Shown here piece by piece: positions 1,592 through 50,407 of a stretch of DNA of 64,000 nt. Under the pieces are notes generated by a model. It searched no databases. It was given only the letters and a program-made list of their open reading frames with translations, and had not been told where the DNA came from. Origin of the DNA: a virus; the IMG/VR virus record IMGVR_UViG_3300044716_000068; one strand, written 5' to 3'. Made by a program: the position numbers and the translations under genes. Numbering within the stretch: position 1 is the first letter of the stretch; the number at the start of each line of letters is the position of its first letter.

Positions 1592-1972
1592 TTATTTTGC
1601 TGTAGTGGTAGTAGTGGTAGTTGTAGCAGGAGCACTAGTTGTGCTAGTGGTAGTTGTAGTTGTTGAATCTACAAACACTGCTGCAGCTAATGCGTCTAAT
1701 AAAGCTTGATCAAGATTAGCAGCTTCCACTCTAAATGATTGTGCATCTGGGCTATTAGGTAACCAGTCACTAAATAAACCATTGAAGTTGTTAATAGCAT
1801 GATAGGTCTTTGGACCTGTGTAGCCTACTGGCTTACCTGCCCATACGTTGTCTATCACTGCTTGTGCTTCTACTTGTACATCTGCAATAGGTGCCTGTAC
1901 GTTTTGTGTGTCAGAAATTACCTGCACTGTACCAAAACCAAAAATGTGGATTGTATTCCATGCGTTTGCCAT
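1592..1972 (-). CDS. small hypothetical protein with C-terminal poly-Thr/Ser tail
   Basis: 126 aa ending ...DSTTTTTTSTTSAPATTTTTTTTAK. It lies between the mega-fibre and the GT9 gene, with no recognisable domain. Confidence 0.45.
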   Translation of the reverse strand: MANAWNTIHIFGFGTVQVISDTQNVQAPIADVQVEAQAVIDNVWAGKPVGYTGPKTYHAINNFNGLFSDWLPNSPDAQSFRVEAANLDQALLDALAAAVFVDSTTTTTTSTTSAPATTTTTTTTAK

Positions 1973-1992
1973 AGTTGTTATTTTTTGTAAAG

Positions 1993-4900
1993 TTAAATTA
2001 AATTATTGTTTTTCAAAATATTTTTTATCATTTTTATTTCATCCTTCAGATTATCATTCTCAGCTTTAAGTTCTTTGAAAGCGTTTACATAAGAAGCATA
2101 TATGGCATCCTTCTCAAATTGTAGGATTGGACTACCACCTTGTTCAACTATCACCTCAAGACCATTCTCATCCACTCTAGATAGTGGGTTTGTTTCCACT
2201 ACACAAGACATTACTTGTTGTACTTCCTGTGCTATGAAACCATATTTCTTATGGCATGATGTATCACCATTCCAGCAATAGCTTACAGGTCTTAATTTAA
2301 CAATATCATCTAGACCAAAGCAAGTATCTTGAATAGTATTCTTTCTTCTACAGTCAGAGATACCACCACCCCATTGACATAAGTTATTTACAAATGTGTA
2401 GTTGTTTGCCACACCTGGAATACAAGAACCAATAATGTGAGAGTTAGTTGTGCTATTACTACAGTTGTATGTACCACCTAAAATTGTTGACCAAGGAGAG
2501 AAACAGTTTACACAATTGCAATAACCACCAACTATAATTGAACAATCAGAACCTACAAAGTTAGTAGAACCACCTCCTGCAACTGAATGTGCTCCAAATG
2601 CATTATTAACAAATCCACCTCCTGCTACTGAATAATTACCATTTCCACCATTACCATATCCTCCACTCACTGTTGAACCAACACCACTTCCAATATTTGC
2701 ATAACCACCACCTATTGATGTGCATGCACCTGAGCCAACGTTACCATCACCCCCTGCCACTGTAGCACAAGCTCCTACAACATTATTACCTCTACCACCT
2801 CCAATTGTAGAAAAAACTCCTGATACAATATTACCACAACCACCACCAATTGCTGAATGAAGTCCTGATGCACAGTTACTTGTTCCTCCACCAACAAATG
2901 AACGACCACCTGTTGCTCTATTTACATAGCCACCTGAAACTGTAGAATAAGCTCCTGATGAACTATTATTGTAACCTCCTCCAACAAAAGCTCTTGGGCT
3001 TGTGGCACAGTTATCACTACCTCCTACTGTTGTAGACCAAACACCTGATGAAATGTTTGCTTGACCACCTCCAACAAATGAACAAGCTCCTGTAGCTGTG
3101 TTTGATATACCACCTCCTACTGTTGAGCGATAAGCTGATGCTGTATTAGAACTACCTCCTCCAACAACACTTGAATAACTACTTGATATATTAGAATTAC
3201 CTCCTCCAATAAAAGCAAAATAACAAGATGAAGTATTATTACTACCGCCTACTACAGAACTTCTATAGAAATTAGCAGTATTTGTGTAACCTCCTCCTAC
3301 AAATGACCAACCTCCTGATGCAACGTTATATCTTCCACTAAATGTTCCTGAACAACCTCCTGATGCAGTGTTTTGTAATGCACCACCTACAACAGAATGT
3401 CCTGATGATGCTATATTTAATTGTCCACCACTAACAGTAGCGTGTCCTACTGATGCTGTATTAGCGTTACCTCCTCCTATTGTAGCACAGTTTCCTGATG
3501 CATTGTTACCACATCCACCTGCCACTACACTTGCTGAAGCTGAAACTGTATTCCCCAATCCACCACCTATAGTTGCGTATGAGCCATAAGCACTACTTAC
3601 TGTATTTGACCTACCACCTCCTATTGTTGCATCTGTAGCTTGTATTAAGTTAGAATAACCACCTGAAATAGTAGAACTATTTTGACAAGTTCTATTATTA
3701 TATCCACCACCTGTTGTTGAATATGCTCCTGTAGCTACGTTACTTGAACCTCCTCCAACAACAGAACGATATCCTGATGATGTATTACTTGCTCCGCCAC
3801 TTACTACTGAAGCGTTTCCTGATGCTATATTATTTCCACCTGCACCAATAAAAGCACATCCTCCTGATGCTGAATTACTTATTCCACCTGCAACTGTTGT
3901 ATAATTTGAAGAAGAAGTATTTATTTTACCTCCTCCTACTGTTGAGCCTGAGTTTGTTGAAGCATTATTTCTACCACCACTCACTGTAGAATAATAAGAA
4001 GAGGCTGTGCCACCTGTACCACCTGCAATTGTTATACCATAAGCACCATTTATTAAGTTAGCACTCCCACCACCAATAACTGAATAAACTCCTAAATTAT
4101 TTCCTGTTCCACATATACAGTTAGAATTACCACCACCTATAAATCCAAATGAACCTATCACAACTTTATTAAGATTACCTCCTGCAACTGTAGAACAATT
4201 TGCAGAAGATAAATTAGATGCACCACCTCCAACATTAGATTCATTTCCTGAAGCTGTGTTAAAACTACCTCCACCTACTCTTGCATATCCTGCTGTTGCA
4301 GTATTACCTATACCACCTCCAATACTTGAATATACTGCATTAGCTGTATTATTTAATCCTCCTAATACTGATGCCCAATCTGCTATTGCTCTACTATTAT
4401 GACCACCAACCGCAGTTGAACGAGTACCTGTTGCACAGTTAAAAACACCCCCTCCAACAAAAGAATGAACTCCTGTTGACTGATTACCTTCTCCACCTAC
4501 AACAATTGAATAATTATTACTTGCAGTGTGAGCACATCCCCCACCAATAAAAGAACAATTACCTGAAGCTATATTACCTTGACCACCACCTAATGTAGAA
4601 CGAGTACCTGAAGCTGTGTTACTTAACCCTCCTCCTATATGTGAATTAGTTCCTGAAGCTGTATTTGTTCTACCACCTCCCACAGAACTATCAGTACCTG
4701 AAGCTGAACTATTAAATCCTCCTGCTACAACAGACATATAACCACTTGCAGAGTTAGCTGCACCACCACCAATAAATGTATAAGTATTACTTGTAGCATT
4801 TTGATTACCACCTGCTATTGTTGAACTTGTACAGTTAGCTGTATTTCCTGAACCGCCTCCAACAATAGAACAAGCACCTGTAGCCCTATTCTGAAGCCCT

Positions 4901-7900
4901 CCTCCTATTGTAGATAATAGACCTGCTGCATAGAAAGTAGTTGGTGCCACAGAAAAATATCCTGCTATATTCCAAGTACCACCTGATGTATTATTACCAA
5001 CCCCACCTGCAATTGTTGAACCTGAACTTGCATTAGCAGCAGAACACATCCAATTACAAATACCACCACCTATTGTTCCATTAGATGCAAGCATATAGTT
5101 TCTATAACCTCCACTAATTGTTCCTGCATAACTACTTGTAGCAATTGAATTTATATAACCACCACCTACTGTTGAATAGTTATGAGATGCTGTATTAGTA
5201 TATCCTCCTCCAACTGTTGAATACACTGCTGTAGTACAGTTTCCTTGACCACCTCCAATAAAGGAACAAGCTCCTGATGCAATGTTTGCTCTACCACCAC
5301 CTACAAAAGAGTGAACTGCTGATGCTTGATTTGATTCCCCACCTGATACTGTTGAGTGTGAAAATGTAGCTACATTATATTTACCACCTGATACTGTTGA
5401 CCAAGTTGCTGATGCAGAATTACCATAACCTCCTGATACCGTAGCATATGAATTTGTTGCACCATTTGATAGACCACCTGCTACAACAGAATCATATCCT
5501 GAAGCAGTGTTTGATATACCTGCACCTACAAATGCTTGAGAACCTGATGCTGTATTTGAATTACCACCTAAAACAGCTGCGTTTGTACCTGATGCTGCAT
5601 TTGTAGTACCACCGCCAACAGTAGAACAAGCTCCTGAAGCTGTGTTTGAAATACCTCCTGAAATAGTAGTTCCTCCATTGTTAGCAGTGTGACTAAAACC
5701 ACCTGCAATTACAGAACAGTTACCTGATGCTGTGTTTAAACATCCACCTCCTGCAGAAGAAAATGTTCCTGTAGCTTTTACATATTGTCCACCAACTACA
5801 CTACTATGACTTCCTGTTGCACAGTTAAAAAGACCTCCTCCTACAAATGCTCTTGTATTTACTGCTTGGTTTAATTCTCCTCCTACCACTACACTATAAC
5901 CACTACCTGAAACATTCGCACAACCTCCTCCTACAAATGCACAATTACCATTAGCAGTGTTTGCTCTACCTCCTGATACTGTTGAATGAGCTGCTGAAGC
6001 AAGATTGGCTTGACCTCCTCCTACTGTAGAAAAACCACCACTTGATGTATTACTAAATCCACCTGCTATTGTTGAATAGCACGCAGATACTGTATTAATA
6101 TAACCACCTGCTATTGTAGCCAAGTAACCACTAGCTGAGTTTCCTCTACCACCACCTACTGTTGATTGTCCATTAGAAGATGTGTTACTAGCTCCCCCAC
6201 CTACTACTGAACAGTTTCCTGATGCAGTATTACCAAATCCTCCTCCTATAAAACCACGATAACCTGATGCTGTATTACTAGCTCCACCTGCAACTATAGA
6301 ATCTGCACCATTTGATACATTGCTTCTACCTCCTCCTATAAATGACCAAGTACCTGATGCTGTGTTAAGACAACCACCAACTATTGTAGCAAAAGTATTA
6401 GTAGCTCTATTTTGAAATCCTCCTCCTATAAAACTAAAATCACCTGCTGTGCATATTGTAGGGGCAACATTAAATCTTTGACCATTCCAAGTACCACCTG
6501 TTGTATTACCACCTACACCACCTGCTATTGTTACAGCACAAACTTTTGCACCACAAATATAGTTTGAACTACCCCCACCAATAGCTGCAAACCCATTACC
6601 AAATGCAGTAGATACACTACAAATAAAATTTTGATAGCCTCCTGATATTGTAGAATAACTTGCAGAGTTAGTATTAAAATACCCACTCAATATAGATGCA
6701 TAAGGTTTAGGGGCACTATTACCAAATCCACCACCAATTATTGATAAGTCACCTGATGCTATATTGCATCCGCCTCCTAAAACAACAGAACAAGCATTTG
6801 AGGCTGTGTTATTTGCACCACCTCCAACAATTGAATGTCCACCTGATGCTGTGTTTGAGTTTCCACTACCAATAAAAGAACGACTTCCTGACGCTATATT
6901 TCCTAAACCACCTCCTATTGTTCCTTGATAACCACTTGATGTATTTGCTCTACCACTTCCTACAAAAGAATATCCTGATGAAGCTGTATTACCACAACCT
7001 CCTGCTACTGCTGCTCTATAAGATGACGCTGTATTATTTTGACCTCCTCCTATAAATGAATGTGCACCACTAGCATTATTGCTTTGACCTCCACCAATAG
7101 CAGCACAAGCTCCTGAAGAACTATTTAATTTACCACTACCTATAAAGGAATGACTTCCTAATGAAACGTTATTACACCCACTAGCAATACCTGACATATC
7201 TCCTGTAGCACAGTTTTGCAATCCTGCACCAACAAAAGCTCTTGCATTTGTTGCAAGGTTTAATTCACCACCTGCTACAACTGAATATACACCACTAGCT
7301 GTATTTGCACATCCTGCTCCTGCAAAAGAACAAGCACCTGAAGATGTGTTAGCTCTACCTCCTGCAACACTTGCAAAAGCACCTGAAGCAACGTTATTAA
7401 AACCACCACCTATAGATGAGTAGTTACCTGAAGCAGTTCCATTATAACCACCTGCTACAACAGACGCATTACCTGTTGCTTTGTTTACATTACCACCACC
7501 TACAGTAGATTGATTAGCTATAGCACAGTTTTTATATCCACCTGAAGCAGTTGAATGTTCTCCTGCTGCTCTGTTTTGGAAACCACCTCCTATGAAGCTA
7601 TATTGACCTGCAACACATTTAGTTGGAGCCACTGTAAAATCACAAGCTGCTAAAGACCAAGTACCACTTGTAGTGTTGTTACCAATACCACCTGCTATGG
7701 TAGCACCAAGAACTAAACAAGATGATGTAGGGCTGCAAATTATATTACAAAGTCCTGCTCCTACAAATGAATAAATACCACCTGCATAGTTTACACCACC
7801 ACCAACTATTGTTGATTCTATGGCTGATGCTACGTTTGCATATCCTCCACCTATAAACGAATAACATCCTGATACAGTATGACCTCTACCGCCACCAAGG

Positions 7901-10900
7901 AATGACATACAGTTGCTCACTGTATTAGAAAATCCACCTACCGCTGAAGAATATCTTGAAGATGCAGTGTTACCATATCCACTTCCTATGAATGAACTAG
8001 TCGCTGTAACTGTATTCCTATCTCCACCTGCTATTGTTGCAAAGTTTCCACAAGCTACGTTTGTGCATCCACCTCCTACAGCAGCATATACTGCTGAAGC
8101 AACATTACCTTGACCTCCACCTATAAAACTACAAGCTCCTGATGCTGTGTTTGATATACCTCCTGCAACTGTTGAGTTTGCTCCTGAAGCACAGTTACTT
8201 GTTCCTCCTCCTATAGTGGAACGATTACCTGATGCTCTATTTATGTAACCACCTGATATTGTAGAATATGTATTTGAAGCACTATTATTATAACCTCCAC
8301 CTACAAACGCTCTTGGACTTATAGCACAGTTATCACTACCTCCTACAACTGCAGACCAAGCACCTGTTGCAGTATTTGCTTGACCACCTCCTACTGTTGA
8401 ACAGTTACCTGATGCAGTGTTACCTTGACCACCTCCAATAAATGACATATTTGCTGAAGCTGAATTACCACTACCCCCTCCAATAAAAGAATTTGAATTT
8501 TGTGTTGTATTAGAAAGACCTCCTGCTATAGCAGAATATGTACCCACTGAAGCATTAGCTGAACCACTTAAAGAACCACTATATGCTCCTGAAGAAGTAT
8601 TTGTTACACCACATCTTACTGAAGAACACAATCCTGCTCCAAGCACAATAACAGCACTAGAACCAACATTTATACCTGAGCTTCCTGAACTACCACTTGT
8701 ACCTGACGTACCACTGGTGCCAGAAGTTCCACTTGTTCCTGAGCTACCACTGGTTCCTGTTGTACCACTAGACCCACTAGAGCCTGTTGTACCAGAGGTT
8801 CCTGTTGTACCAGACGTACCACTGGTAGCTGATGTACCACTAGAGCCTGAAGTACCTGTGGTACCTGACGTACCACCTGTACCATTGGTTCCACTTGTAC
8901 CACTTGTACCTGTAGTTCCAGCTGTACCTGAGGTGCCATTAGATCCATTAAGACCTGATGTTCCTGAGGTACCTGTAGAACCTGAGGTTCCTGATGTGCC
9001 ATTGACACCACTACTGCCTGAGGAACCAGATGTTCCTGAAGATCCAGAAGTACCTGTGGTTCCAGAGGTTCCACTTGTACCACCTGTTCCATTAGTGCCA
9101 GACGTGCCACTAGAACCTGCTGAGCCACTAGAGCCAGAAGTTCCTGTTGTGCCACTTGTTCCACTTGTTGCAGACGTACCACTAGATCCACTTGTACCTG
9201 TAGTACCACTAGTTCCAGAAGAGCCAGTCGTACCACTAGTACCACTTGTTCCTCCTGTTCCATTAGTTCCACTTGTACCTGATGTTCCTGTGGTACCAGA
9301 TGTACCATTTATTCCTGAAGATCCTGAAGATCCTGATGTTCCTGTTGTTCCTGAAGTACCTGAGGTTCCTCCAGATCCATTGGTACCTGACGTACCACTA
9401 GTTCCTGTAGTTCCACTTGTTCCTGTTGTACCGCTACTACCACTGCTGCCAGAAGTGCCAGAAGTACCTGAAGAACCATCACCTCCTGATGCACCATCAA
9501 GATTTACTATCCATGATGTATAAGTACCACTACCTACTGTTCTAGTAGGTGCTGCGAATGATAAAGATCCTGTTGCTGGGTTATATGAAATTACCTCACA
9601 CTCTTGGAAGTTGTTTGCATCATAAACCACAATGATTGATTGGGCCACTGTATAAGCCAATCCTAATCCTACAATGATTGTCCCAGCATTGCCTAATGTA
9701 AAAGTAGAAGATGATGTTGTTGCATATCTATCTCCTTGTAATCCTGAGGTACCACTCGTACCACTTGTCCCAGTTGTTCCTGATGTACCAGCTGTACCAC
9801 TAGAGCCTGCACTACCACTAGAACCACTTGTTCCTGTTGTTCCACTTGTTCCAGAAGTTCCTGTAGTTCCAGAAGTTCCTGTAGTACCACTAGATCCTGA
9901 GGTGCCTGTAGTGCCACTTGTTCCACTAGTACCTCCAGTACCATCTGTTGCAGATGTTCCTGAACTTCCTGATGTTCCAGAAGTACCACTAGTACCTGTA
10001 GTGCCTGATGTACCAGCACTACCACTTGTTCCACTAGTTCCACTTGTTCCTGTTGTACCTGAAGAGCCAGAAGACCCTGTTGTTCCTGAGGTGCCAGAAG
10101 TACCTCCTGTACCATCAGTTCCACTTGTTCCACTGGTTCCTGCAGTACCAGATGTTCCAGATGTTCCAGAAGTTCCACTTGTTCCTCCTGTACCATCAGT
10201 ACCTGAAGTTCCACTTGTACCACTTGAACCTGCTGTTCCACTAGATCCTGCTGTTCCACTAGTACCACTAGTACCAGTTGTACCAGAGGTTCCCCCTGTT
10301 CCATCTGTACCACTAGTTCCTGACGTTCCTGTTGTACCTGCTGTACCACTTGATCCTGAGGTTCCTGAACTGCCACTGGTTCCTGTAGTACCTGAAGTGC
10401 CACTGGTACCTGCTGTACCTGATGTACCTGTTGTACCAGCAGTTCCTGAACTGCCAGATGTACCAGAGCTACCTGAAGTTCCTGTGGTTCCACTTGTACC
10501 AGATGTGCCATCTGTACCTGAAGTACCTGATGTAGCACTTGTACCTGATGAACCTGAGCTTCCAGAAGTACCTGTTGTACCACTTGTGCCAGTTGTACCA
10601 CTAGTCCCTGATGTACCATCAGTACCACTTGTTGCAGAAGTACCATCTGTTCCACTTGTACCAGATGTACCAGTAGTTCCAGAAGTGCCAGAGGTTCCTG
10701 AAGTACCATCAATACCTGAAGTACCAGAGGTACCACCTGTAGCTGTGAAGTTTGCAATAGTACCATCACCTCGTATATATTGAGCTGCTGATCCTGTTGC
10801 TACAACGTTTATAGTTCCTGAAGAAGTTATAGGGGGTGTTGTAATGCTGAATGCTGGAGGCATGGCAAGTTGTACACTTGTCACTGTTCCTACAGACCAA

Positions 10901-37734: not shown

Positions 37735-40700
37735 TTACGATGTTGCTGCAGCTGTACCAGCTAAATTACATTGTGGTGCTGCAGTAGTTGTTGTTGTTGT
37801 GGTGGTTGTAGGTGTAGAAGTTGTAGTTGTAGTAGTTGTGGGAGTAGAAGTTGTTGTAGATGTAGTAGTAGTTGTTGTACTTGTACTTGTACTTGTGGTT
37901 GTAGTAGTTGTATACTCTTCATTAATTGCTGTTCCTTCTAATGCACATACATTTACTGCTGTACCAGACAAGTTACAATAATAAATTACTGTTGTTGTAG
38001 TGGTAGTGGTAGGAGAAGGAATCTCTGTAACAGCTATTGCTGAGATATCACAACTTTCATTTAATCCAGAATAGAAGAAATTGTTTTCCCCTATGTAGAA
38101 GTTAGGCAGGTATGTATGGAAACTCACCCAGCTTTTAGTATTGAAGTTAAATGAAGCAGTCCATGATTTATTACAGAAGTATTCTAAGTCTGTTACAGCT
38201 ACAAATCTTTTTACTGATGTATTACCAGCAGTTGGTTGATTTACATAAAACTCTTTAGCCACATCATCATAGAATATTTCCTTACCTGGTTGAGGTATAT
38301 AGTCTAACTTAGTAATAATTACTCTATCAAACTTGCTATCAAACACACCATGTAAACCAATATTCTTGAAGTTGTTATCTATATCAACATTTGGGAAGTA
38401 TCTTAATATTTCAAATGATAAATGGTCTGTAAAGAATCTGTTTAGACCAGAGCCAAAGCCTGATATATCTGTTGCTTGGGTACCAGTGATTAAGAATATT
38501 TGTCCTCTCTTGGCATCCACAGTCACCTGACCTTGTGGTATTCTAAGCAACATTTTGTTTTGACATCCTACATAACCAAGATCTGTTTCAGCAAAGTCAA
38601 TAGGGGGTGCATTACCAAATAACTCACCACCTCCTAAATATGCAGATTGAGGATTGCTTGTATCTATTGTTAACAAGTTATTGTATAACAATGTCTTATT
38701 CTCAAATCTAGCTAATGTTGCTCTGTTCTGTATACCATCTAGTGATACTAAGTTACCATAGTTTTGAGGGAAGTCAAAGAAGCTTGCTGGACGATATATC
38801 AACCAGCTATTTATTCTATTATCAGAATAGCTTTCTTGTCTGTCAGAGTATATTGCTCTAAATGGAAAATATGTGTAACATAATTGTTGCACCCAATCTG
38901 TAGGCAAATGAGAGAAGAAGTTCTCTACGTTTTGTTTAGTGAATGTTGTATTGTAGTAGTACGTATTGTCAAATGCAATAGGTACTCTGTTCTCTTGGAA
39001 CCATTGGTCAGGAATACCTGAACTCACGTGTGGATAGTAATCACCTTCTAAGTTATTAAATGCTTGACGTAAGTCTACATTAATAGAAGACTCTACATAA
39101 TAATAAGGAACTCCATAAGCAAATAGATACATCTTACCATCATAAACATAATTAAATGTTCCTGGTGCAGTGGTACCAATAGGAGGAGTTGTAGATGTAG
39201 TGGTTGTACTAGTTGATGTATTATCTACAATGTCATCATTAGGACAGTCAAGGTAATGAGCTTTCACTGATATGATGTTCTTCATTAATGTAGATCCTAC
39301 ATAATAGTCATACAATACAGATCTTGCTGAGTACCAGTATTCTGGATAGGCTATATTACCTATCTCATCATAATAGATATCACTATCATCAGGAGCCTTA
39401 ACTCTATTATCAATAAAGAATGGAAGCTTAGTTTTGAAACCAAACTTGCTAATAAATGTGTCACCACCAAATACCACTTCAACACCACTTGCTGGTAGAG
39501 AATTAAATATTCTCTGAAATCCTGTATCAATAGTTTGATAGGAATATATCTGTCCCCACTGTCCATTGTTGATTGTCTTGATTGAACCATAATATGAAAC
39601 AACCTTTATATCTTGTTGAAATTCAGGAGTTCCACAGTTCCCTGATTCTCCAAGTGTAAATCTAGAATTATCAGAGATTTGACTTACACCTGCTACAACA
39701 AGGTTTGGTGTTTTGTTAGGATATGGTAACGCTGGTACAGGTCCCACTCCAGTTCTTGTTTCAATACTTTTGGTATATACTGATGATTCTCTGTTCCAGT
39801 TATTAAGATCATAATCATCTCCCACAGATTGAACACCTGGGAATACATATTGAGATCTATCAAGTTGTCTTTGTTTAATACCTAGCGTACCAGTTAAAGG
39901 ATTAGTAGCAGAATTCTGTATAGCTTCACTATAGTCATAGCTAGATATAGAATTAAAAGAATATGCAAAGTTTCTTCTACTAACTCCATTCACATATATC
40001 TGTAAGTAAGATTGATATGCTGTGAACATAGCAGTGGCATTGAATCCGCCTAGATCAGCAATTGCTCTACTAGAATTCAAGGCATCTATCTGTGCTTGTT
40101 TAGTAAGAAGCTTGTACATTGCGTGCTCCTTCACTTGTACAAAGTGAGCTCTACCAGCTCCAAATAATACACTCTCCAACTTAAGAACATTACCTAATGT
40201 AGGTTGTCCAAAAGAAGTTTCTGGTGAATTAAATACTTGTCTGTATGGTGACTCATTATTATTAAATCCATCTAACTGAGCAGGATAACATTCAGTATTT
40301 TTATTGTTATTATTAGCAACTATTGTGTATCCTGTGCAACCACTAACACGTACAGGAACAGTAGAAGAATTTACTGTAATTGACGTACCTTTTTGTACAG
40401 TGATATTTGTCAAAGATTGAGTGATAGGATCTGTATAGCTAAATGCAGGTGGACCACCAGCACAAGCAAGTGGAACAGTAATTGTGTAAGCTGTAGCTGT
40501 AACATTTGTAAATGTAGCAGCTCCACTATTTACAACAGGAAGTGTAATAGAACATATCTGAGTTGTTGCTGTTGTAAAAGCAAAAATTGCTGTCTGTCCA
40601 GTGTTGCAATCTGTATATTGTAAATTACCATTAATAGTTGCTGTCACTTTGAATGTATCACATTGAGAATTGTATGCGTTGCTTTTCTCAAGTAAGAAAG

Positions 40701-42615
40701 GATCTTCGTTAAGATCATTATAAGGATAGTTTGGATAGTAGTAAGGAGTTCCTTCTCTATCATATTTACCCACGTTTCTAAGGATGCCCTTAGCAATAAT
40801 AGATTTATTTGTACTTCTATTACCTCTCACTATCTTAAATCCAACAATAGAGGCTTTCTCTGCAGCTGTTAAACTAGATGCTTGGATGAGAAATATTACT
40901 TGTTGTACATCTATCTTTACACCAATTGGATATACAGCACTAGCTGATTGCATTGTTGGTTGTATCTGTCCACCAGAATATATAATAGGAGCACTCTCAA
41001 AGTGAGGACTTACAAGTACATCAGGAAATTTATGATGTCTAATTGGTTCATTAGCAAGGTCTCCCCATACATCCACATTACATGGATACAGATCTGTAGA
41101 TTCCCAATATGCAAAGTCTCCAGATTGATATGGATATGCATCTCCTATCTTTTCAGCATCTGTTGTAGGAACAGGATATGTAGCTGTTACACTAGCTGTA
41201 TTATATATTTTCCAATAAGGAGCACTAGTTCCTTCTCCAATAAAGTCATTGTTAGTATTTGGTACAACAATTAAATCATTAGATGTTGATGCTCTACCAG
41301 GAATATGGAAACCATCTGTTTGTTTACCATTGTCTAATAAAAAGACTATCTCAAATGCATATACCTCATCTCTTAAATAACCTCTAAGATTGGCAGTGTA
41401 GAAGCCATCAGCATACGTATTGTTAGCTGGTAGCTTATATGTCTCCCATTGAAGTTGAATTTGATTAGCAATACCTTGATAGTTAATTCTATCAATAGAT
41501 GTGAGGTTATCCCATACAATAACATCCTGTACGTTTGTAACATCTTGAGCAATATCATAATAAGCAAACTTCTCAAGTATGTCATTAAGACTCAAAGGAA
41601 TTTGAGTTATGTTCTGACCTGTATAAGTGATTGTTCTAGACTTATCTTGTATGTTGTAAGTTCCTACAAGTTCTACAGTGGTGCCATTATTTATTGTTTT
41701 AATGACAGCCAAGTTAAAGTATTGGAAGTATCCTGTAATATCTATGTCACTGATACTCAACACAATAGAGTTTCCTACAGAGTATTGAAAGTCAGGTGTT
41801 GTTATCTCTGTGTTTGCAATAGATACAGGATTAGTAATTGAGTAGTATGATGTATATGCATCTCCTGATGCATTACAATATTGAATAGCAAATTGATAAG
41901 CTCCTGCTTTTAAATCTCCACCTACAACAATATCAGTAACATCTAAGTTAGGAATTGTGAAGTTAGGTTGCACCTTTAACTTATTACAGTCTAACGTTGC
42001 TTCAATATCTGGATCACAATTTTGATCACCTGTAAATATGGTGATATATGGAATTGAATCAATATTAATATATCTTCTTGGATTAAGACCATCTGTCCAA
42101 TAGACCTCAGTGGTACAGTTGGTAATCTTATGTACAGCTTTATGAATAGGATAGTTGATGTCAAAGTTCAAACATGGAGAATTTGCACAAACTGTTAATT
42201 CTGTATCAGGGATTGGAGTACATAATAAATGATATACACAGTCATTGTTATTCATATACCCTATCTCACTTCCTCCTGTTTCAGGATTAGCTAAGAAGAA
42301 GATGTGTTTATTTTTCTCTTGAATGAAGTGTGTACCAATAAGTTGGTAGCCTTCAGGGAAATCTAAACAAGCTTCATTTGAAGGTTCATTCTGATAGTTT
42401 ACAGAATTAGAGTCAAAGTTCTCTAATGCTGCGTTTAGGGCATAAGAAAGTTTCCCCTTCTGTATTTGATTTACAGAAGAGTCCATGTCTAGTCCCACTC
42501 TACCAAGATTAAATTCTTGTCTTACACTAGAGGTGCCTTGATTATCTGTTCCATCCATGTCCATATCTTGAGCTTCTGTTTGGTAATTCATATTGTGCAA
42601 AACGTTGTAAGTCAT
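37735..42615 (-). CDS. large tail protein (1626 aa), putative receptor-binding/tail-spike protein with C-terminal ~55-residue poly-Thr/Ser tract
   Basis: The ORF ends ...EEYTTTTTTSTSTSTTTTTTSTTTSTPTTTTTTTSTPTTTTTTTTTAAPQCNLAGTAAATS and has an internal TSTSTTTTSTTPP linker. Its 5-prime end overlaps the upstream 328-aa gene. Confidence 0.5.
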   Translation of the reverse strand: MTYNVLHNMNYQTEAQDMDMDGTDNQGTSSVRQEFNLGRVGLDMDSSVNQIQKGKLSYALNAALENFDSNSVNYQNEPSNEACLDFPEGYQLIGTHFIQEKNKHIFFLANPETGGSEIGYMNNNDCVYHLLCTPIPDTELTVCANSPCLNFDINYPIHKAVHKITNCTTEVYWTDGLNPRRYINIDSIPYITIFTGDQNCDPDIEATLDCNKLKVQPNFTIPNLDVTDIVVGGDLKAGAYQFAIQYCNASGDAYTSYYSITNPVSIANTEITTPDFQYSVGNSIVLSISDIDITGYFQYFNLAVIKTINNGTTVELVGTYNIQDKSRTITYTGQNITQIPLSLNDILEKFAYYDIAQDVTNVQDVIVWDNLTSIDRINYQGIANQIQLQWETYKLPANNTYADGFYTANLRGYLRDEVYAFEIVFLLDNGKQTDGFHIPGRASTSNDLIVVPNTNNDFIGEGTSAPYWKIYNTASVTATYPVPTTDAEKIGDAYPYQSGDFAYWESTDLYPCNVDVWGDLANEPIRHHKFPDVLVSPHFESAPIIYSGGQIQPTMQSASAVYPIGVKIDVQQVIFLIQASSLTAAEKASIVGFKIVRGNRSTNKSIIAKGILRNVGKYDREGTPYYYPNYPYNDLNEDPFLLEKSNAYNSQCDTFKVTATINGNLQYTDCNTGQTAIFAFTTATTQICSITLPVVNSGAATFTNVTATAYTITVPLACAGGPPAFSYTDPITQSLTNITVQKGTSITVNSSTVPVRVSGCTGYTIVANNNNKNTECYPAQLDGFNNNESPYRQVFNSPETSFGQPTLGNVLKLESVLFGAGRAHFVQVKEHAMYKLLTKQAQIDALNSSRAIADLGGFNATAMFTAYQSYLQIYVNGVSRRNFAYSFNSISSYDYSEAIQNSATNPLTGTLGIKQRQLDRSQYVFPGVQSVGDDYDLNNWNRESSVYTKSIETRTGVGPVPALPYPNKTPNLVVAGVSQISDNSRFTLGESGNCGTPEFQQDIKVVSYYGSIKTINNGQWGQIYSYQTIDTGFQRIFNSLPASGVEVVFGGDTFISKFGFKTKLPFFIDNRVKAPDDSDIYYDEIGNIAYPEYWYSARSVLYDYYVGSTLMKNIISVKAHYLDCPNDDIVDNTSTSTTTTSTTPPIGTTAPGTFNYVYDGKMYLFAYGVPYYYVESSINVDLRQAFNNLEGDYYPHVSSGIPDQWFQENRVPIAFDNTYYYNTTFTKQNVENFFSHLPTDWVQQLCYTYFPFRAIYSDRQESYSDNRINSWLIYRPASFFDFPQNYGNLVSLDGIQNRATLARFENKTLLYNNLLTIDTSNPQSAYLGGGELFGNAPPIDFAETDLGYVGCQNKMLLRIPQGQVTVDAKRGQIFLITGTQATDISGFGSGLNRFFTDHLSFEILRYFPNVDIDNNFKNIGLHGVFDSKFDRVIITKLDYIPQPGKEIFYDDVAKEFYVNQPTAGNTSVKRFVAVTDLEYFCNKSWTASFNFNTKSWVSFHTYLPNFYIGENNFFYSGLNESCDISAIAVTEIPSPTTTTTTTVIYYCNLSGTAVNVCALEGTAINEEYTTTTTTSTSTSTTTTTTSTTTSTPTTTTTTTSTPTTTTTTTTTAAPQCNLAGTAAATS

Positions 42616-44011: not shown

Positions 44012-44745
44012 TAGTTGCTTGGTTTTACAGCATTTGGTGCCTGCCCATCTGCACCATCGTCAGATATATCTGTTTTAAGTCTAAAGTAAGTAGATAACAA
44101 CTTTTGAGAAGTGAGCTCTAACACTTGCTTCTCTAAATATCCAGGACATCCATATTCCTTATCTAAAGGATTCATACAGACTTCTTCTATAGGATATACT
44201 ATACTACCACAGCCACACTCAGGGAACATTATTTCATTAGGTACATCTTCTTCAAAGAAAGCAGATATTCTTGTTGCCTTTAATAATGGATTGTTAATAT
44301 ATAAATAGCCACCATTAGCTATCCAATAGTATTGTTCATTCTTTATAATAGGAAGTTTCAATAAGTTTAAATACCTATTGATTGTAATCTCTTTAAATCT
44401 TTTACCTTGACCACCCATAGCGTTGATAGAATATACACCCTGAATTACATATTGATAGTTTCCTTCAGATATGCGAGGAAGTTTATATCTGCTTCTTGCT
44501 ACATTGCATGGATCTACAAATTCACAACATTCAGAAATAGGAACCTCTACCATCTCTAAACAAGGGATGGTAGTAAATAAAGTATCAGTGGCCCAAAGCT
44601 TTCTAAGATTTGTTTCACGCTTAACCAATAACTGTGTGTTGTTCTTAATCTCAGATGCCACCACCCTATCAGTGATAAGGTTATCTGTGGATAGCAACTT
44701 GTGCATTCCACGTACATCTGAAACTAATTTCCTTAATGTTGCCAT
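44011..44745 (-). CDS. hypothetical protein (244 aa)
   Basis: Intact ORF with 1-nt overlaps to both neighbours. No motif recognised. Confidence 0.4.
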   Translation of the reverse strand: MATLRKLVSDVRGMHKLLSTDNLITDRVVASEIKNNTQLLVKRETNLRKLWATDTLFTTIPCLEMVEVPISECCEFVDPCNVARSRYKLPRISEGNYQYVIQGVYSINAMGGQGKRFKEITINRYLNLLKLPIIKNEQYYWIANGGYLYINNPLLKATRISAFFEEDVPNEIMFPECGCGSIVYPIEEVCMNPLDKEYGCPGYLEKQVLELTSQKLLSTYFRLKTDISDDGADGQAPNAVKPSN

Positions 44746-45995
44746 TATAAATACTGTTTGAATATATTTGTCATTCCATCAGTCTCATCTATCAAGAATG
44801 CTGTCACTTCTGCTTTAGACATTACGTGACCATTCTTATCATCCCAAAGACTCTTTGCATTTGAGAATGCTGGAATTTGGTAAAATTTAATACCATTAAA
44901 ATCATGACTCACCTCGTGGTGTTTGTCTCCTGTAAATATATAGAAGTTATCATAATCAGACCAGTTGTTCTTAAACTCAATTGGAAATATACCAGCAAGC
45001 TTTACAGGCTTAATAGCATCTCCATGGTTAAACATCATTGCTGTATTACCATATCCTATGTATTTTCTATATTTAGGGCTGATGTTAAAGTCAGCTCTTT
45101 CTTCTTTTCTAAAATACGTTTGTAACCAATTAACCATATGCCATCCTACAAACTCATCATGATTACCAGCTACATACACTACGTTAACATTTTTAGCATA
45201 TTGTAATAACATTGTAATTACAAGTATTTCATGATTACATATCTTAAGAAATCCTTCATGATATGTACCTATATTAGTTTGAGGAGTTCCTTTTGTAGTG
45301 TTGTTAGTATGCTCACTGTTAAACTCATCTGAACCAATTATGTAAGTGATGTGATCTAGATTGTTAGATAGTTGAGCTTGAGTTAAAATAAGTTCTGTTT
45401 TAAACATCATTCTAGCAAACCTTTCTTCTATATCATTATTTCCATCTATGTCAAACTTATTCAAATGTGAGTCTTGTTTATTAATAACTAAACAAGCATG
45501 TTGCTTAGTTGGAACAAACTTAGGACTTATAACTGCTTGACTTACAGGCTCATATGAAGCTAAAAAGTCTACAAAACTATCTTGAAAAACTTGCTCTGTA
45601 GACTTCTTTCCTAACCATGCTTTGACTTGCCAATGAGGATTTCCACCATTCCCCCAGAAGTTTTGTACATATTTAGTTATTTCCCATTTCTCTGTATCTA
45701 TCTTACACTTATTAATTAACTCATCTAAGCTCTTTACTTCTTCGCTAAAATTAGCTACCACCTCTCCTGTACCCTTTACAAGGTCTTCTGTAAACTTAAC
45801 AACCCTATCTTCTAAGTCTGTTATATAGTTTCCAATCTCTGCATTTTCTTGAGCCACCTCTTCATTTCTTAGTTCTTTTAGTAAATCATCAACCTCTAAT
45901 TCTGTAATTCCAAGCTTATCAGCGTAGAACTTCTTGCTCTTTTTCCAATGTAGAATGTCTTCTAACTGTTGTAGTAAGGATTGGTTTTCAGGCAT
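44745..45995 (-). CDS. calcineurin-like metallophosphoesterase (416 aa)
   Basis: Motifs VYVAGNHDEF (GNH[DE]), NHGDAIKP and FTGDKHHEVSHD (GD/GHxH-like) lie in the C-terminal half. They match the metallophosphoesterase motif III/IV/V pattern. Confidence 0.55.
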   Translation of the reverse strand: MPENQSLLQQLEDILHWKKSKKFYADKLGITELEVDDLLKELRNEEVAQENAEIGNYITDLEDRVVKFTEDLVKGTGEVVANFSEEVKSLDELINKCKIDTEKWEITKYVQNFWGNGGNPHWQVKAWLGKKSTEQVFQDSFVDFLASYEPVSQAVISPKFVPTKQHACLVINKQDSHLNKFDIDGNNDIEERFARMMFKTELILTQAQLSNNLDHITYIIGSDEFNSEHTNNTTKGTPQTNIGTYHEGFLKICNHEILVITMLLQYAKNVNVVYVAGNHDEFVGWHMVNWLQTYFRKEERADFNISPKYRKYIGYGNTAMMFNHGDAIKPVKLAGIFPIEFKNNWSDYDNFYIFTGDKHHEVSHDFNGIKFYQIPAFSNAKSLWDDKNGHVMSKAEVTAFLIDETDGMTNIFKQYL

Positions 45996-46104: not shown

Positions 46105-46140
46105 AAAACAAAAACCCCCAGCCTAGAAAGGCCAGGGGGT
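46105..46140 (-). terminator. rho-independent terminator (GC hairpin followed by U-tract on the minus-strand transcript)
   Basis: The minus-strand RNA reads CCCCCUGGCC-UUUCUA-GGCUGGGGG followed by UUUUUGUUUU. It is the only GC-rich hairpin in the 194-bp gap between the 182-aa gene and the phosphoesterase gene. Confidence 0.55.
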
Positions 46141-46189
46141 ACTCTGTAAACCAACAAACAGGGTTTTTGATATATTAAATGTTAATCTA

Positions 46190-46738
46190 TTAACAGCTTA
46201 CATAGTTTGTAAGTTCTCCATTAACATCTACTTCCACTGCATAATCAGTACCACTTCTGGTTAATTTTCTCCATCCCACTGAACCAACAAATGGTGTTGT
46301 CAAACTTGGACTATCATAGAAAATCATTGTTACAATAGGAACAGTATATCCAGGTAAAGCATAAACAAGACTTGTTGTAGTTGAACCACTACAAGCACTA
46401 GCAGAACTACCTGTAGCTGAGTTATCAATTGTATATTCCACAGGTCCTGCTACAGTAGTTGTTGTAGTTGTTGTACTAGTACTAGTAGATGTGGTAGATG
46501 TAGTTGTTGTGGTGGTTCCTCCAGAAATAAGCATGTCAAGAGAGTTGGTACATGTTGCCAAAGAGGTCACTCTAATAATAGTAGCTCCATCAGGTACACC
46601 TGTTAGGGTGTATCCTGCTTGTAAGGCTGCTTTTGATATACCAGAAGCTAAGGGTGTAGTGTATCCATCTGCATCTGAATAGATGTCAAATGGGCCTGTA
46701 TCTGCCCCAGCTAGGGTTAATGTTACTAAGACTGTCAT
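46190..46738 (-). CDS. hypothetical tail-fibre-associated protein (182 aa) with GPF N-domain and poly-Thr/Ser linker
   Basis: N-domain is homologous to the 289-aa protein. It is followed by GGTTTTTTSTTSTSTSTTTTTTTVAGP and a C-terminal globular part. Confidence 0.45.
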   Translation of the reverse strand: MTVLVTLTLAGADTGPFDIYSDADGYTTPLASGISKAALQAGYTLTGVPDGATIIRVTSLATCTNSLDMLISGGTTTTTTSTTSTSTSTTTTTTTVAGPVEYTIDNSATGSSASACSGSTTTSLVYALPGYTVPIVTMIFYDSPSLTTPFVGSVGWRKLTRSGTDYAVEVDVNGELTNYVSC

Positions 46739-46760
46739 TTTTTAAATTGATTTTGATTGG

Positions 46761-47024: not shown

Positions 47025-47033
47025 TTTTTTCTA

Positions 47034-48218
47034 TTAAGGGATGTACATTATATAATATGCAGCAATTACAGGTTGTATGTTTAAATGAGCTCCATCATTA
47101 CCTGTAGGGTCAACTGTTATAGCCACATTATTAGGAGCATTGGAAGTCACTGTAATTCCAGTGGTAGCTGTTGTTGTTTGAACATTAAAAGGGCTTCTGT
47201 TTACAATACCAATATTACCAGCACTATCCCAACCTTCTGGTGAATTGCCAAGATAATGACTATGACCAGGGTCGTTCAATGTAACAGTTGCTGTACCTAA
47301 AGCATTGTGTGAGTGGGCTGGCAATTGTGAAGGAATAAGCACTATTGTATTTGCTCCTGCTGTACCAGATAAAGCATAGTTAGGGTTGCCAGCAAAAGCA
47401 GGATTAACAGCAGCATCAAGACCAATTCCTACAGGAGGTACACTAGCAATAGCTCCTACAGCAACACGTCCTCTTTTATCAGGAGTGCCATTTAAGCCAT
47501 TGCATAGATACACCTTGTTGAAACCATTTGCTGGAATACCAGCACCTGTTCCATCAAAGTCAGTCAATGACCCATAATATTCATATGCTACAAAAGGAAC
47601 CATCTTTGAAGACTGCTGGGTAGAACCACCTGCTTGACTAGCTAAATAAGCAGCAATTAAAGCATCTAGGTCTGCAAGCTTAACATAGTTTGTATCTAAG
47701 TCTAAAGTAAGAGCAGCTAAGTTAGCTTCAACTATACAAAGCTTTGTTATAACAGCTTGTAATACAGCATGTGTATCACTAGAGTCTGTTACACCACTTA
47801 GACAGTCTACATCATAATCAGCATTCAATATAGCAATTTCAGCTTCTACAGCATCAACTTGTACTTGTAAATCACAAGCAGCTCTTACTAAAGCAGACAA
47901 CACCTCAACTAAGTTAGGTGTTCCTACTGGTAAGTATTGATCTACTAGTTCACAATAATAAGCAGGATTGATAGTTATGTCAATACCTGTTCCATCTAAG
48001 AAGGAAACAACAGTATCAATTAATATATTCTCTACAGTGAGCAATGAGTCTCCTGTTGTAATACCCAATGCTTCAGAGCCAATACCTGTATATCTAACAC
48101 ATTGATCAGATACAATCTCTACACAGCCATTATAACAGGCATCACAAGGTCTTATTGTTGTACTGGTAGAAGTGGTACTTGTAGTAGTAGTAGTAGTAGT
48201 AGTGGTATCTTCTGGCAT
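47034..48218 (-). CDS. tail fibre protein (394 aa): poly-Thr N-terminus, shared adaptor domain, phage tail collar domain, HxH-containing distal tip
   Basis: The N-terminus is MPEDTTTTTTTTTSTTSTSTT. CDACYNGCVEIVSDQCVRYTGIGSEALGITTGDSLLTVENIL is the shared adaptor. VYLCNGLNGTPDKRGRVAVG matches the tail collar (LCNGQ...LPDLRGR) motif. LPAHSHNALGTATV...DPGHSHYLG are HxH motifs as found in T4-type fibre tips. Confidence 0.65.
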   Translation of the reverse strand: MPEDTTTTTTTTTSTTSTSTTIRPCDACYNGCVEIVSDQCVRYTGIGSEALGITTGDSLLTVENILIDTVVSFLDGTGIDITINPAYYCELVDQYLPVGTPNLVEVLSALVRAACDLQVQVDAVEAEIAILNADYDVDCLSGVTDSSDTHAVLQAVITKLCIVEANLAALTLDLDTNYVKLADLDALIAAYLASQAGGSTQQSSKMVPFVAYEYYGSLTDFDGTGAGIPANGFNKVYLCNGLNGTPDKRGRVAVGAIASVPPVGIGLDAAVNPAFAGNPNYALSGTAGANTIVLIPSQLPAHSHNALGTATVTLNDPGHSHYLGNSPEGWDSAGNIGIVNRSPFNVQTTTATTGITVTSNAPNNVAITVDPTGNDGAHLNIQPVIAAYYIMYIP

Positions 48219-48226
48219 TTTATAAT

Positions 48227-48550: not shown

Positions 48551-48606
48551 TAATCAATTGACATCCACAACCAAATTTAGCTCCACAGTTTCTACAGTTT
48601 GCCATA

Positions 48607-49164
48607 TTAATAAAAGTTAATGATGTAATTATTTCCAGAACAACCACAGTTGCTCCTAATAAAATTGTTTAACATATTATTTGCTTGCATATAAAGCTTA
48701 TTAGCAGTATCTATAGCACAGTTGTTTGCAGCAGCTATTGAACCTGATATCATATAATAGATGCTAGTCAATGCCACTTTTGATTGTGTTTTGATAGCAA
48801 GATCACATTCCATTAAATCAAGTTTCATAAAAGCATTATCAAACTTCTCTTGTATAAGCTCAGTACGCATGATGTTTCTTTCTACATGATACGTAATAGC
48901 AGGTGCCACTGTATACCTTAGATAGTATATACCATCTGGTAGAGGAATTAATGGTTCACCTACAAGACTAAGTCCTAAAGATGTAGAATTGAATATATTA
49001 AAGTCATTTGGAACAAATGGTAAAGATACCACTCCAAAATTGGGTACTGTTATTTCTATTGTAGGGGAGCTCACAACAGGAGGATCTGTGTCATATGTTG
49101 AAGCGTCAGCAATACCTAGTGTTAAGGTATTGTAAGTTGGTATTACCAATATATCTAAGACCAT
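48607..49164 (-). CDS. hypothetical structural protein (185 aa)
   Basis: ORF only. Confidence 0.35.
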   Translation of the reverse strand: MVLDILVIPTYNTLTLGIADASTYDTDPPVVSSPTIEITVPNFGVVSLPFVPNDFNIFNSTSLGLSLVGEPLIPLPDGIYYLRYTVAPAITYHVERNIMRTELIQEKFDNAFMKLDLMECDLAIKTQSKVALTSIYYMISGSIAAANNCAIDTANKLYMQANNMLNNFIRSNCGCSGNNYIINFY

Positions 49165-49246
49165 GTTATTTAAAATAAAAATGCCAGAGGATTTGAGAAT
49201 ATCCTCTCACCCTCTGGCATAGGTTAATATGATAACTACCTTACTA

Positions 49247-50407
49247 TTAAGGAATTAAAGTAGTTGTTGTTGAAGTACTAGGCCATACAGTTGTAGTGGT
49301 AGACGTTGTTGTAATACAAGCGTTATCACTAGCAACAGTTCCTAAAGCAGCTTCTAATATAGCTTCAATTGCAGCACTTAAGCTCTGAGGACTAGCTATA
49401 ATTACAGTGCTATCTTCCATAATGTAATCACCCCATTGATAAGCTGACTTGTCATACTCGTTAAACTTGATGTAGTAGGTATCATAGGTAGTACCATCTG
49501 TTACCCAACTTTCAAAGTTTTCATTATAACCAGCCATTCTGTAAAGATGCTTTAAGTAACCAGCTTGGTAGCTATAGAAATTCTTTTCTAATTGTTGAAT
49601 TTCTGCAGAAGTACCTAGAGGGTAGCTAGAGCGTTGAGTGATAACAGGTTCAGCAACAAAGTTACATCTGTCAGCCACAATAAAGTCAGCAGTAGTTGCA
49701 GGACCAGAATACACAAATGTGCGGAAGTAAAATCTGTCATACTCCCAAGGGAATGCAGCAACGTCACATGGTTGACCATATTGAGTTAGAGGCTTACCAG
49801 AGATAACTAATACAGCATCTGCATCATTACCAACTCTTTGGAATTGGTAGAAAGTGTTAAAGCTAATGTTGTCTGGGTTATCACCAGGAGCTTGTTGTGT
49901 TAACTTGATGATAAATTGATCAATTAATGCAGGAACGTCTACATCAGTGCAAGGATCACCACCACAATCACAACATGGAGCTTGTACAGTTACACTACGA
50001 GTGAAACCATTGAAGTATAAGGTGTCAACGTAAGAAGAGTGACCACGTAACGTTAATGTTACGATCTCACCACATTTTACTGTCCAACCACCAACTTCAG
50101 TTACTTGGTTAGCTACTGTAGCACATCCTGTAACTTTGTACCATTCTGTTACATTAGATTTGCAAGAAGAACCTGAAGGACATCCAGAAATTTTATCTGA
50201 ACGCTTAGATCCTTGTAAATAAGTGTTTACTCTACCTTGAGCTGCATAAAAATAGGGGGATGCTGCAATGTTACCAGCGTTAGCCACTGTATAATCACTA
50301 CGAAACAATCCAAATTGACCAGCTGTTAAATCTTGTGTTGAGCCAGAGCTAGGTAAAGTATTGCCTACTGGTACAACAAAGAGCGTGGTTAGGGAAAAAT
50401 CTGCCAT
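49247..50407 (-). CDS. hypothetical structural protein (386 aa) with Cys-rich core and C-terminal Thr/Ser tract
   Basis: The ORF ends ...ACITTTSTTTTVWPSTSTTTTLIP. Internal Cys-rich segments include QAPCCDCGGDPC and DVDVPALID. Confidence 0.4.
   Translation of the reverse strand: MADFSLTTLFVVPVGNTLPSSGSTQDLTAGQFGLFRSDYTVANAGNIAASPYFYAAQGRVNTYLQGSKRSDKISGCPSGSSCKSNVTEWYKVTGCATVANQVTEVGGWTVKCGEIVTLTLRGHSSYVDTLYFNGFTRSVTVQAPCCDCGGDPCTDVDVPALIDQFIIKLTQQAPGDNPDNISFNTFYQFQRVGNDADAVLVISGKPLTQYGQPCDVAAFPWEYDRFYFRTFVYSGPATTADFIVADRCNFVAEPVITQRSSYPLGTSAEIQQLEKNFYSYQAGYLKHLYRMAGYNENFESWVTDGTTYDTYYIKFNEYDKSAYQWGDYIMEDSTVIIASPQSLSAAIEAILEAALGTVASDNACITTTSTTTTVWPSTSTTTTLIP

Follow-up and report, generated by a model that had tools for sequence, protein, structure and literature searches.

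We analysed a 64,000-nucleotide (nt) stretch of the virus record IMGVR_UViG_3300044716_000068, referred to here as the window, in which nearly pure threonine/serine (Thr/Ser) tracts recur in several proteins and genes for sugar-modifying enzymes are also present. The window carries 32 large open reading frames (ORFs), all on the minus strand. Judging from sequence comparison, the tracts are best read as the usual extended linkers and tails of this clade of freshwater crAss-like phages. The glycosylation machinery, which includes an enzyme resembling the protein O-heptosyltransferase TibC, appears to be tied to the (Gly-Thr-Ser)n collagen of a giant tail fibre. We lean towards this reading as a whole, with confidence slightly better than even. 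A first-pass annotation, made from the sequence alone, had merged two different things, a set of linker tracts and a glycosylation toolkit.

Tracts were scored wherever at least 8 of 10 consecutive residues were Ser or Thr. Such segments occurred in exactly five of the 32 large ORFs:

1592–1972, minus strand: ORF126, a small protein between the fibre gene and ORF291 (found by the Ser/Thr scan)
37735–42615, minus strand: the muzzle protein, 1626 amino acids (aa; Pfam crAss_MUZ, E 2.2e-27)
46190–46738, minus strand: ORF182, with a conserved N-terminal domain (aa 1–71), a Ser/Thr linker (aa 72–97), and a variable C-terminal domain
47034–48218, minus strand: ORF394, a tail-fibre protein (PHROG phrog_8469 'tail fiber protein', E 3.9e-16)
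49247–50407, minus strand: ORF386, a conserved protein in the tail gene block (by gene position)

At the background Ser/Thr frequency of 0.118, about 0.03 such segments would be expected in roughly 21,000 residues, so the tracts lie far beyond chance. The cargo, capsid, portal, and terminase proteins of the window (~13,000 residues) contained none. The observation made in the first-pass annotation was confirmed in part. It had counted Thr/Ser runs in six ORFs, at coordinates that proved correct to within a few codons; five were recovered by our scan, and the sixth, a 3242-aa fibre, had no such segment and carried collagen-like Gly-X-Y repeats instead. The C-terminal muzzle tract, put at about 55 residues, measured 47 (nt 37777–37917). 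That the carriers are virion proteins held for the muzzle (Pfam), ORF394 (PHROG), and the fibre, whereas ORF386, ORF182, and ORF126 are so placed by gene position alone.

The tracts were followed through relatives in IMG/VR, whose loci bear L-numbers; counts are among the loci listed. In more than 100 relatives, the muzzle, ORF182, and ORF386 had their tracts at matching positions. In terminal tracts, in-frame differences of −3, −6, +12, and +27 nt were seen, most of them between genomes sharing at least 97% identity, and internal tracts were unchanged. The ORF182 linker (nt 46448–46525) was found at the same site in about 80 of 86 homologues (38–100% identity), with 14–39 residues of varying sequence, and the C-terminal domain behind it was swapped in many of them. 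A C-terminal domain of the ORF182 type also terminates proteins of 900–1285 aa, again behind a Thr tract. The muzzle has two internal tracts, aa 1131–1145 (nt 39181–39225) and aa 1533–1543 (nt 37987–38019), whose positions are kept in most homologues at 59–98% identity. Its C-terminal tract (aa 1567–1613) belongs to a region that, across homologues, is a variable string of tracts (8–91 residues) and small modules; one relative with a 98% identical muzzle showed an in-frame difference of +27 nt. The N-terminal extension of ORF394 (aa 3–23, nt 48150–48212) is restricted to the closest relatives and is absent in about 55 homologues that start at residue 25. It differed in frame by −3, −6, or +12 nt among five relatives, four of them 99–100% identical and one 82%.

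A small paralogous family in the relatives was also noted, with copies at the following places:

L094:15288–18922; L088:17689–19943; L098:13522–13935; L149:19794–20351: 48-aa N-domain (CCNP) family

Its members share a conserved 48-aa N-domain (MAxNKRxLKAFVRFDGSGR...GxWxEIxAYECCNP), followed at once by poly-Thr and then by differing C-terminal domains or nothing, and 26 of 31 copies carry the tract. They resemble decoration or adhesin modules that can be exchanged. Another low-complexity protein was seen among late genes at L092:17652–18887. It has 412 aa, a signal peptide, a long Ala/Ser and Ser/Glu/Lys region, and a beta-barrel-looking C-terminal part; its Ser-rich stretch is of another type than the poly-Thr tracts.

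Because the tracts sit at domain boundaries or termini, are fixed in position and variable in length, and are followed by swapped modules, they were interpreted as inter-module linkers. In ORF182, the muzzle C-terminus, and the small modular family, they would connect a conserved domain that serves as anchor with distal modules that can be exchanged. The terminal extensions of ORF126, ORF394, and ORF386 would be kept at the amino-acid level while their length shifts through in-frame insertions and deletions. Such tracts are useful as markers of domain boundaries and of module swapping in tail proteins, which is the more ordinary result of this work.

The length differences, in whole codons and mostly between nearly identical genomes, could also come from replication slippage, with the tracts as neutral and functionless low-complexity expansions; the lineage-specific tracts of ORF394 and ORF126 fit such an origin. 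However, the Thr codons inside the tracts are mixed (ACA/ACT/ACC, with no single repeated triplet), so it is the amino acid and not a DNA repeat that is maintained, and a simple slippage microsatellite was ruled out by these mixed codons. Tract positions are moreover kept across 40–60% sequence divergence, the tail of ORF386 hardly varies in most homologues, and the cargo, capsid, and portal proteins of the same window are free of tracts. We regard functionless slippage as very improbable.

ORF386 departs from the other carriers. Its C-terminal tail (aa 364–386, nt 49250–49318; ITTTSTTTTVWPSTSTTTTLIP) follows the pattern (I/V)T(S)TTSTTTT(V/I)WPSTSTTTTLIP, which changed very little in 11 of the 12 homologues aligned (76–89% identity), and the Ser/Thr tail (TTSTTTTVWPSTSTTTTLIP) varied less than every other tract. 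All 58 locus homologues had a tail, L053, L054, and L056, of one lineage, having a longer and different Ser/Thr tail. It could be a recognition or assembly element. The protein has 3633 homologues in metagenomes and gave no Pfam, PDB, or informative PHROG match, and its AlphaFold model was poor (predicted local distance difference test, pLDDT, 46.7).

The presence of modification enzymes beside the fibre gene was then assessed. The window holds the first two genes, and the remainder was visible in L087, from an IMG/VR contig that shares 2 kb with the window at 96.7% identity and shows the genes past the window start:

1–656, minus strand: sulfotransferase, N-terminal 218 aa, running off the window start (Pfam Sulfotransfer_3, E 3.9e-20)
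658–1533, minus strand: ORF291, glycosyltransferase of the GT-B type with a GT9-like (heptosyltransferase-like) fold (AlphaFold and Foldseek)
L087:10001–16003, after the fibre genes: modification cassette, of which only the first two genes reach the window (1–1533), from the L087 gene order

The cassette runs from ORF291 and the sulfotransferase to an adenosine-phosphosulfate (APS)-kinase-like gene (144 aa) and a nucleotidyltransferase like nicotinamide mononucleotide (NMN) adenylyltransferase (128 aa, motif GRWQPWHEGH). On the opposite strand follows an 1179-aa enzyme that combines methyltransferase, GT4, and TibC-like (GT9) domains, and then come glycoside hydrolase family 19 (GH19) lysis genes.

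Both enzyme types named in the first-pass annotation were upheld. The sulfotransferase matched Pfam Sulfotransfer_3 and Sulfotransfer_1 (E 3.9e-20 and 5.4e-13), including the binding-loop motif PRAGSTLL for 3'-phosphoadenosine-5'-phosphosulfate (PAPS), which places it in the PAPS-dependent family; its full length is 272 aa in L087 (10878–11696). The best NCBIfam model was NoeE, a Nod-factor fucose sulfotransferase (E 4e-11, below cutoff), and the best solved structures were protein-tyrosine sulfotransferases (E 3e-5, N-terminal half only); its acceptor may be a sugar or tyrosine. ORF291 had no Pfam hit even at E ≤ 10, the GT9 model PF01075 included, no NCBIfam hit, and no sequence-level PDB match for its profile. 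Its AlphaFold model (pLDDT 82.6, predicted template modelling score 0.84) nonetheless matched the GT9 structure 3tov first in a Foldseek search of PDB (E 3e-11, TM score 0.68), then WaaF, WaaC, and TibC. By this model, ORF291 adopts the two-lobed GT-B fold and most resembles the GT9 heptosyltransferases and TibC.

The C-terminal ~300 residues of the 1179-aa protein matched TibC at E 4.6e-44, and aa 844–1175 scored 241.5 bits with NCBIfam TIGR04414, above the equivalog cutoff of 200. TibC has a catalytic Asp110 and iron-finger cysteines at positions 339, 342, 358, and 370 (PMC4358343). The L087 protein and 25 of 25 distinct phage copies retain all five of these residues. The alignment starts at TibC residue 62, within the N-terminal beta-barrel (residues 1–97) of that enzyme, which forms a dodecameric ring, and at position 25 of the TIGR04414 model. 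JGI annotation gives the same O-heptosyltransferase name to many of 1939 metagenomic homologues. To judge from these sequence features, the phage line encodes a true protein O-glycosyltransferase, and glycosylation of the virion is therefore a serious possibility. The stretch aa 221–560 of the same protein was considered as a glycosyltransferase for its DxD-like motif and dropped, with no Pfam or PDB match.

In most of about 95 loci ORF291 is accompanied by the sulfotransferase, and the TibC-like enzyme is found in about 28. An ORF291 homologue (34% identity) is also separated by only one small ORF from a sulfotransferase-like ORF (GGLPRAGSTLL) in Marine virus AG-345-L05 (L199:25310–27493), a T4-like cyanophage of the Kyanoviridae; the occurrence of the pair there makes it look like a mobile two-gene module across unrelated phage families. 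In Pelagibacter phage HTVC111P (gp52–gp53, L200:24562–27878), a distant ORF291 homologue, 'putative glycosyl transferase', directly follows the tail-fibre gene. That fibre has short NTAIG/NTTG repeats and an S74-like C-terminus, and the pair precedes a lysozyme, as in the gene order of the window.

The fibre itself was the second element of interest:

1993–11721, minus strand: giant tail fibre, 3242 aa (Pfam Collagen E 4.1e-65, eight stretches; Peptidase_S74 E 1.3e-7)
9727–10734 (aa 330–665) and 8668–9477 (aa 749–1018), minus strand: collagen-like (G-T/S-T/S)n blocks of the fibre (Gly-X-Y count)
2452–8481, minus strand: about 135 repeats of roughly 15 residues (GGxxNxA/S), behind the collagen blocks
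2197–2358, minus strand: Peptidase_S74 chaperone domain at the fibre C-terminus (Pfam)

A strict count gave 184 Gly-X-Y triplets, among them 95 GTS, 31 GSS, and 28 GTT, with no proline in X or Y. The long Gly-X-Y periodicity is that of collagen repeat proteins, and the blocks may form a triple helix. The collagen block raises the local GC content to 0.45. The fibre measured 3083 aa in the 96.7%-identical relative (L087:293–9544) against 3242 aa in the window, and its repeat number changes quickly. ORF394, after its Thr tract (48100–48150), and the giant fibre (11600–11700) share a Cys-rich start (C..C......CV.Y.G....GI); the resemblance is weak (12/30 identities, E 0.064) and may reflect a common attachment domain.

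Co-occurrence of enzyme and fibre type was scored in 42 assessable loci with enough flanking sequence, with at least 100 residues of (G-[ST]-[ST])n as the criterion for the collagen. The TibC-like enzyme and GTS-type collagen were found together in 18 of 18 loci, and none of the 24 loci without the enzyme had such collagen (Fisher p 2.8e-12, uncorrected for phylogeny); these had only short G-[I/P/V]-Q collagen runs. The pattern needs at least five state changes on the ORF291 tree. The enzyme and the collagen fibre flank genes that are conserved in both kinds of loci, and four apparent exceptions were loci ending before the enzyme gene. A scan with ORF1704, from the other side of the enzyme cassette, gave 7 loci only. 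The ~15-residue repeats were rejected as the covarying partner, being common in loci without the enzyme.

The tracts behaved differently from the collagen. Their number near ORF291 was equal with or without the TibC-like enzyme, and where both structural and enzyme regions were recovered, tract residues numbered 78–172 with the enzyme (n = 6) vs. 156–276 without it (n = 3); two of the three TibC-less genomes also lacked a sulfotransferase adjoining ORF291. ORF291 was present in every relative where both regions were visible. Because the TibC-like enzyme tracks the fibre and not the poly-Thr tracts, the collagen-like fibre is the likelier glycosylation target.

These counts bear on the view, put forward in the first-pass annotation, that the tracts are modification sites rather than hinges. 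On that view, the tracts of exposed virion proteins would receive mucin-like O-glycosylation in the cytoplasm from ORF291 and/or the GT4/TibC-like domains, and the sugars would be sulfated afterwards; this is compatible with glycosylation of the fibre as well. The composition of the five pure tracts fits a mucin-like domain, and several glycosyltransferase domains, a NoeE-like sulfotransferase, and a PAPS-supply kinase lie beside tail genes, yet no covariation of the pure tracts with either the TibC-like enzyme or the sulfotransferase was seen, and the tract load was not lower where either was missing. The ORF386 tail is conserved like a recognition element. In ORF126, the C-terminal poly-Thr tail (aa 101–126, nt 1595–1672; VDSTTTTTTSTTSAPATTTTTTTTAK; 3 nt shorter in the 96.7%-identical relative) occurs in eight homologues, all from loci with the TibC-like enzyme (8/14 vs. 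0/7 without it), and homologues elsewhere have short P/E-rich tails in its place; the association is, however, limited to one clade.

Phages outside the immediate group point both ways. Leptolyngbya phage Lbo-JY46 has none of these enzymes and no Ser/Thr tract in 125 kb. HTVC111P, by contrast, has the ORF291 homologue after its fibre gene and no tract in its genome, and the T4-like cyanophage, with the ORF291 and sulfotransferase pair, has none within the 49 kb examined. The absence of both enzymes and tracts from Lbo-JY46 agrees with the view of the first-pass annotation, though this is one very distant case. No close relative without any glycosyltransferase was verified among the ORF291 and motif scans (80 loci per list), and the tract-rich contigs of 90–116 kb from L020, L053, L071, and L078 were not among the ORF291-relative or motif matches listed.

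Glycan sites on mycobacteriophage virions reportedly lie at the C-termini of capsid and tail-tube subunits (Freeman et al. 2023). In favour of modified tracts, covalent glycans are present on the capsid proteins of mycobacteriophages (PMC11256854). The claim that the tracts are modification sites rather than hinges was not borne out, because they do not track the testable enzymes and show the features of linkers; both roles could hold. We consider mucin-like modification of the tracts doubtful, and the earlier interpretation as a whole is partly supported. A gene resembling glycosyltransferase family GT32 beside poly-Thr proteins in L094 was considered as a general link and rejected, since it occurs in one lineage only. 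The general O-glycosylation of Bacteroidota (D-S/T-x motif) acts in the periplasm and virions assemble in the cytoplasm; modification by such a host system was set aside on this ground.

The enzymes could alternatively act on the host envelope (lipopolysaccharide (LPS), capsule, or glycolipid), for example in a superinfection block, or serve auxiliary sulfur metabolism, the tracts being plain linkers. The classical members of GT9 are LPS heptosyltransferases, and these come next to 3tov among the best fold matches of ORF291; matches of the GT4 domain include glycolipid and LPS enzymes. NoeE, the best named relative of the sulfotransferase, sulfates a lipo-oligosaccharide; the cassette adjoins lysis genes; and the ORF291 and sulfotransferase pair recurs in the T4-like cyanophage. 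Against this, the C-terminal domain of the 1179-aa protein passes the protein O-heptosyltransferase equivalog model and keeps the iron-finger cysteines, the TibC-like enzyme covaries perfectly with one fibre type, and ORF291 homologues directly follow tail-fibre genes in unrelated phages. A role at the host envelope is in our judgement improbable.

For the favoured reading, of linker tracts and a glycosylated collagen fibre, the sequences establish what the enzyme domains are, that the catalytic residues are kept, and that enzyme and fibre type co-occur; we infer the following substrate, sugar, order of steps, and sulfation target. The TibC-like domain would act in the cytoplasm, placing the first heptose onto Ser/Thr of unfolded or folding GTS repeats. 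The GT4 domain would extend this glycan and the methyltransferase domain would decorate it, and ORF291 and the sulfotransferase may add to it, with PAPS supplied by the phage's own kinase. The glycan would stabilise and shield a proline-free triple helix, as in BclA-type spore glycoproteins.

Several points weigh against this reading. The substrate of the TibC-like enzyme is deduced from co-occurrence alone, and its gene lies outside the window, being seen in the 96.7%-identical relative. Fibre and enzyme could move as one cassette for reasons other than an enzyme–substrate relation, and the ~135 repeats of ~15 residues could be the real target, though they are common without the enzyme. As to the tracts, the near-invariance of the ORF386 tail does not resemble that of a free linker and would better fit a recognition site, a Thr tail on ORF126 was found only in TibC-like loci, and distant Lbo-JY46 lacks all of these enzymes and all tracts. 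The known substrates of bacterial autotransporter heptosyltransferases (BAHT) are beta-helical autotransporter repeats and not collagen-like triplets.

A broader proposal is that one abundant group of freshwater crAss-like phages uses its own enzymes to coat its tail fibres, and possibly its poly-Thr linkers as well, with O-glycans that are built on heptose, methylated, and sulfated. Among these enzymes would be a heptosyltransferase of the autotransporter type, re-targeted to proline-free GTS collagen. We offer this tentatively, as somewhat short of an even chance. To our knowledge, virion glycosylation has been shown only for mycobacteriophages, and a search of the literature found nothing relevant on crAss-like phages with a sulfotransferase or phages with TibC. 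If true, the proposal would extend virion glycosylation beyond actinobacteriophages for the first time and would describe the first sulfated system. It would also make phage sugar coats a broader strategy (for stability, protease resistance, host recognition, or shielding) and widen the substrate range of TibC/AAH enzymes from autotransporter beta-helices to collagen-like repeats. The co-occurrence of 18/18 vs. 0/24 would then mark a concrete enzyme–substrate pair that can be tested in E. coli without phage culture.

The gene content of the window is that of a structural module, from a freshwater crAss-like phage. A Crassvirales-type virion module was recovered in synteny, with Pfam matches to CrAss_Ring_1 (E 2e-7), Ring_2 (E 5e-14), and crAss_MUZ, a weak match to Ring_3_4 below cutoff, and the two head genes listed here:

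52628–54181, minus strand: crAss capsid protein (Pfam Crass_capsid, E 1.6e-26)
56143–58725, minus strand: P22-type portal (Pfam P22_portal, E 1.3e-14)

Giant ORFs of 3905 and 1704 aa had no family match. An SPFH/Band 7 protein (55610–56140, Pfam E 4.4e-27) between the portal and capsid genes is unusual in a phage head module. ORF416 (44745–45995), conserved within the tail-ring gene block, matched the PHROG 'DNA repair exonuclease' phrog_704 (E 1.6e-41), which suggests a metallophosphoesterase-like fold in a virion protein. Relatives in IMG/VR number in the hundreds (301 for ORF416), and the INPHARED phage collection held no close relative, with no match for ORF386 and a best capsid match of 26% identity. 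Lbo-JY46 is the only syntenic relative among sequenced or cultured phages and is distant (capsid 26%, muzzle 32% identical). Its muzzle (L202, 82847–87808) has a C-terminus that aligns to the separate ORF289 of the window (36854–37723), so the two are fused there; the window's own muzzle ends in its poly-Thr tail 12 nt before the ORF289 start.

Among known systems, the Ser/Thr(/Pro)-rich linkers between domains of modular secreted proteins (cellulases, for example) and mucin-like domains are often O-glycosylated. The phage tracts share with them low-complexity runs of 10–50 hydroxy-amino-acid residues between a conserved domain and a variable module, with varying length and sequence. They differ in being almost pure Thr/Ser with little Pro, in cytoplasmically assembled tail proteins, and in having glycosylation as a candidate feature only, and the ORF386 tail differs further in being nearly invariant in most homologues.

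In mycobacteriophage virion O-glycosylation (Che8, Rita, and others; Freeman et al. 2023, cited in PMC11256854 and PMC12582341), phage-encoded glycosyltransferases are likewise proposed to decorate structural proteins, and several of the window's tracts are likewise terminal tails of structural proteins. The window phage differs in being a crAss-like, podovirus-type freshwater phage with GT9-like, TibC-type, and GT4 enzymes and a sulfotransferase, and in having its comparative signal, for a glycosylation that is predicted, at a collagen-like fibre and not at capsid or tail tube. With the BAHT enzymes TibC and AAH (PDB 4RAP/4RB4; eLife 2014, PMC4358343), the 1179-aa protein shares the ~300-residue alignment, a TIGR04414 score above cutoff, Asp110, and the four iron-finger cysteines. 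BAHT enzymes use ADP-heptose to modify the beta-helical passenger of an adjacent autotransporter, whereas the present enzyme is phage-encoded, is fused to methyltransferase and GT4 domains, and has phage fibre genes and no autotransporter as neighbours; its covarying partner is a collagen-like (G-T-S)n fibre and not an AIDA-type beta-helix.

The closest precedent for a glycosylated GTS collagen fibre, by analogy, is BclA3 of C. difficile, in which SgtA, the product of a gene adjacent to bclA3, attaches O-GlcNAc to Thr of the collagen-like GPT repeats (PMC7157674). BclA and BclA3–SgtA (PMC7157674; PMC8968730) share with the phage a long Thr-rich Gly-X-Y region on a surface filament and a glycosyltransferase gene beside the substrate gene. 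The Thr and Ser of their triplets are O-glycosylated, which for the window fibre is predicted only. The fibre also differs in its G-T-S, G-S-S, and G-T-T triplets without proline, where BclA3 has GPT, and the enzymes are of the TibC-type, GT4, and GT9-like classes, where SgtA is GT-A. Finally, BclA and BclA3 are spore proteins, whereas the window protein is the tail fibre of a phage and carries an S74 chaperone domain.

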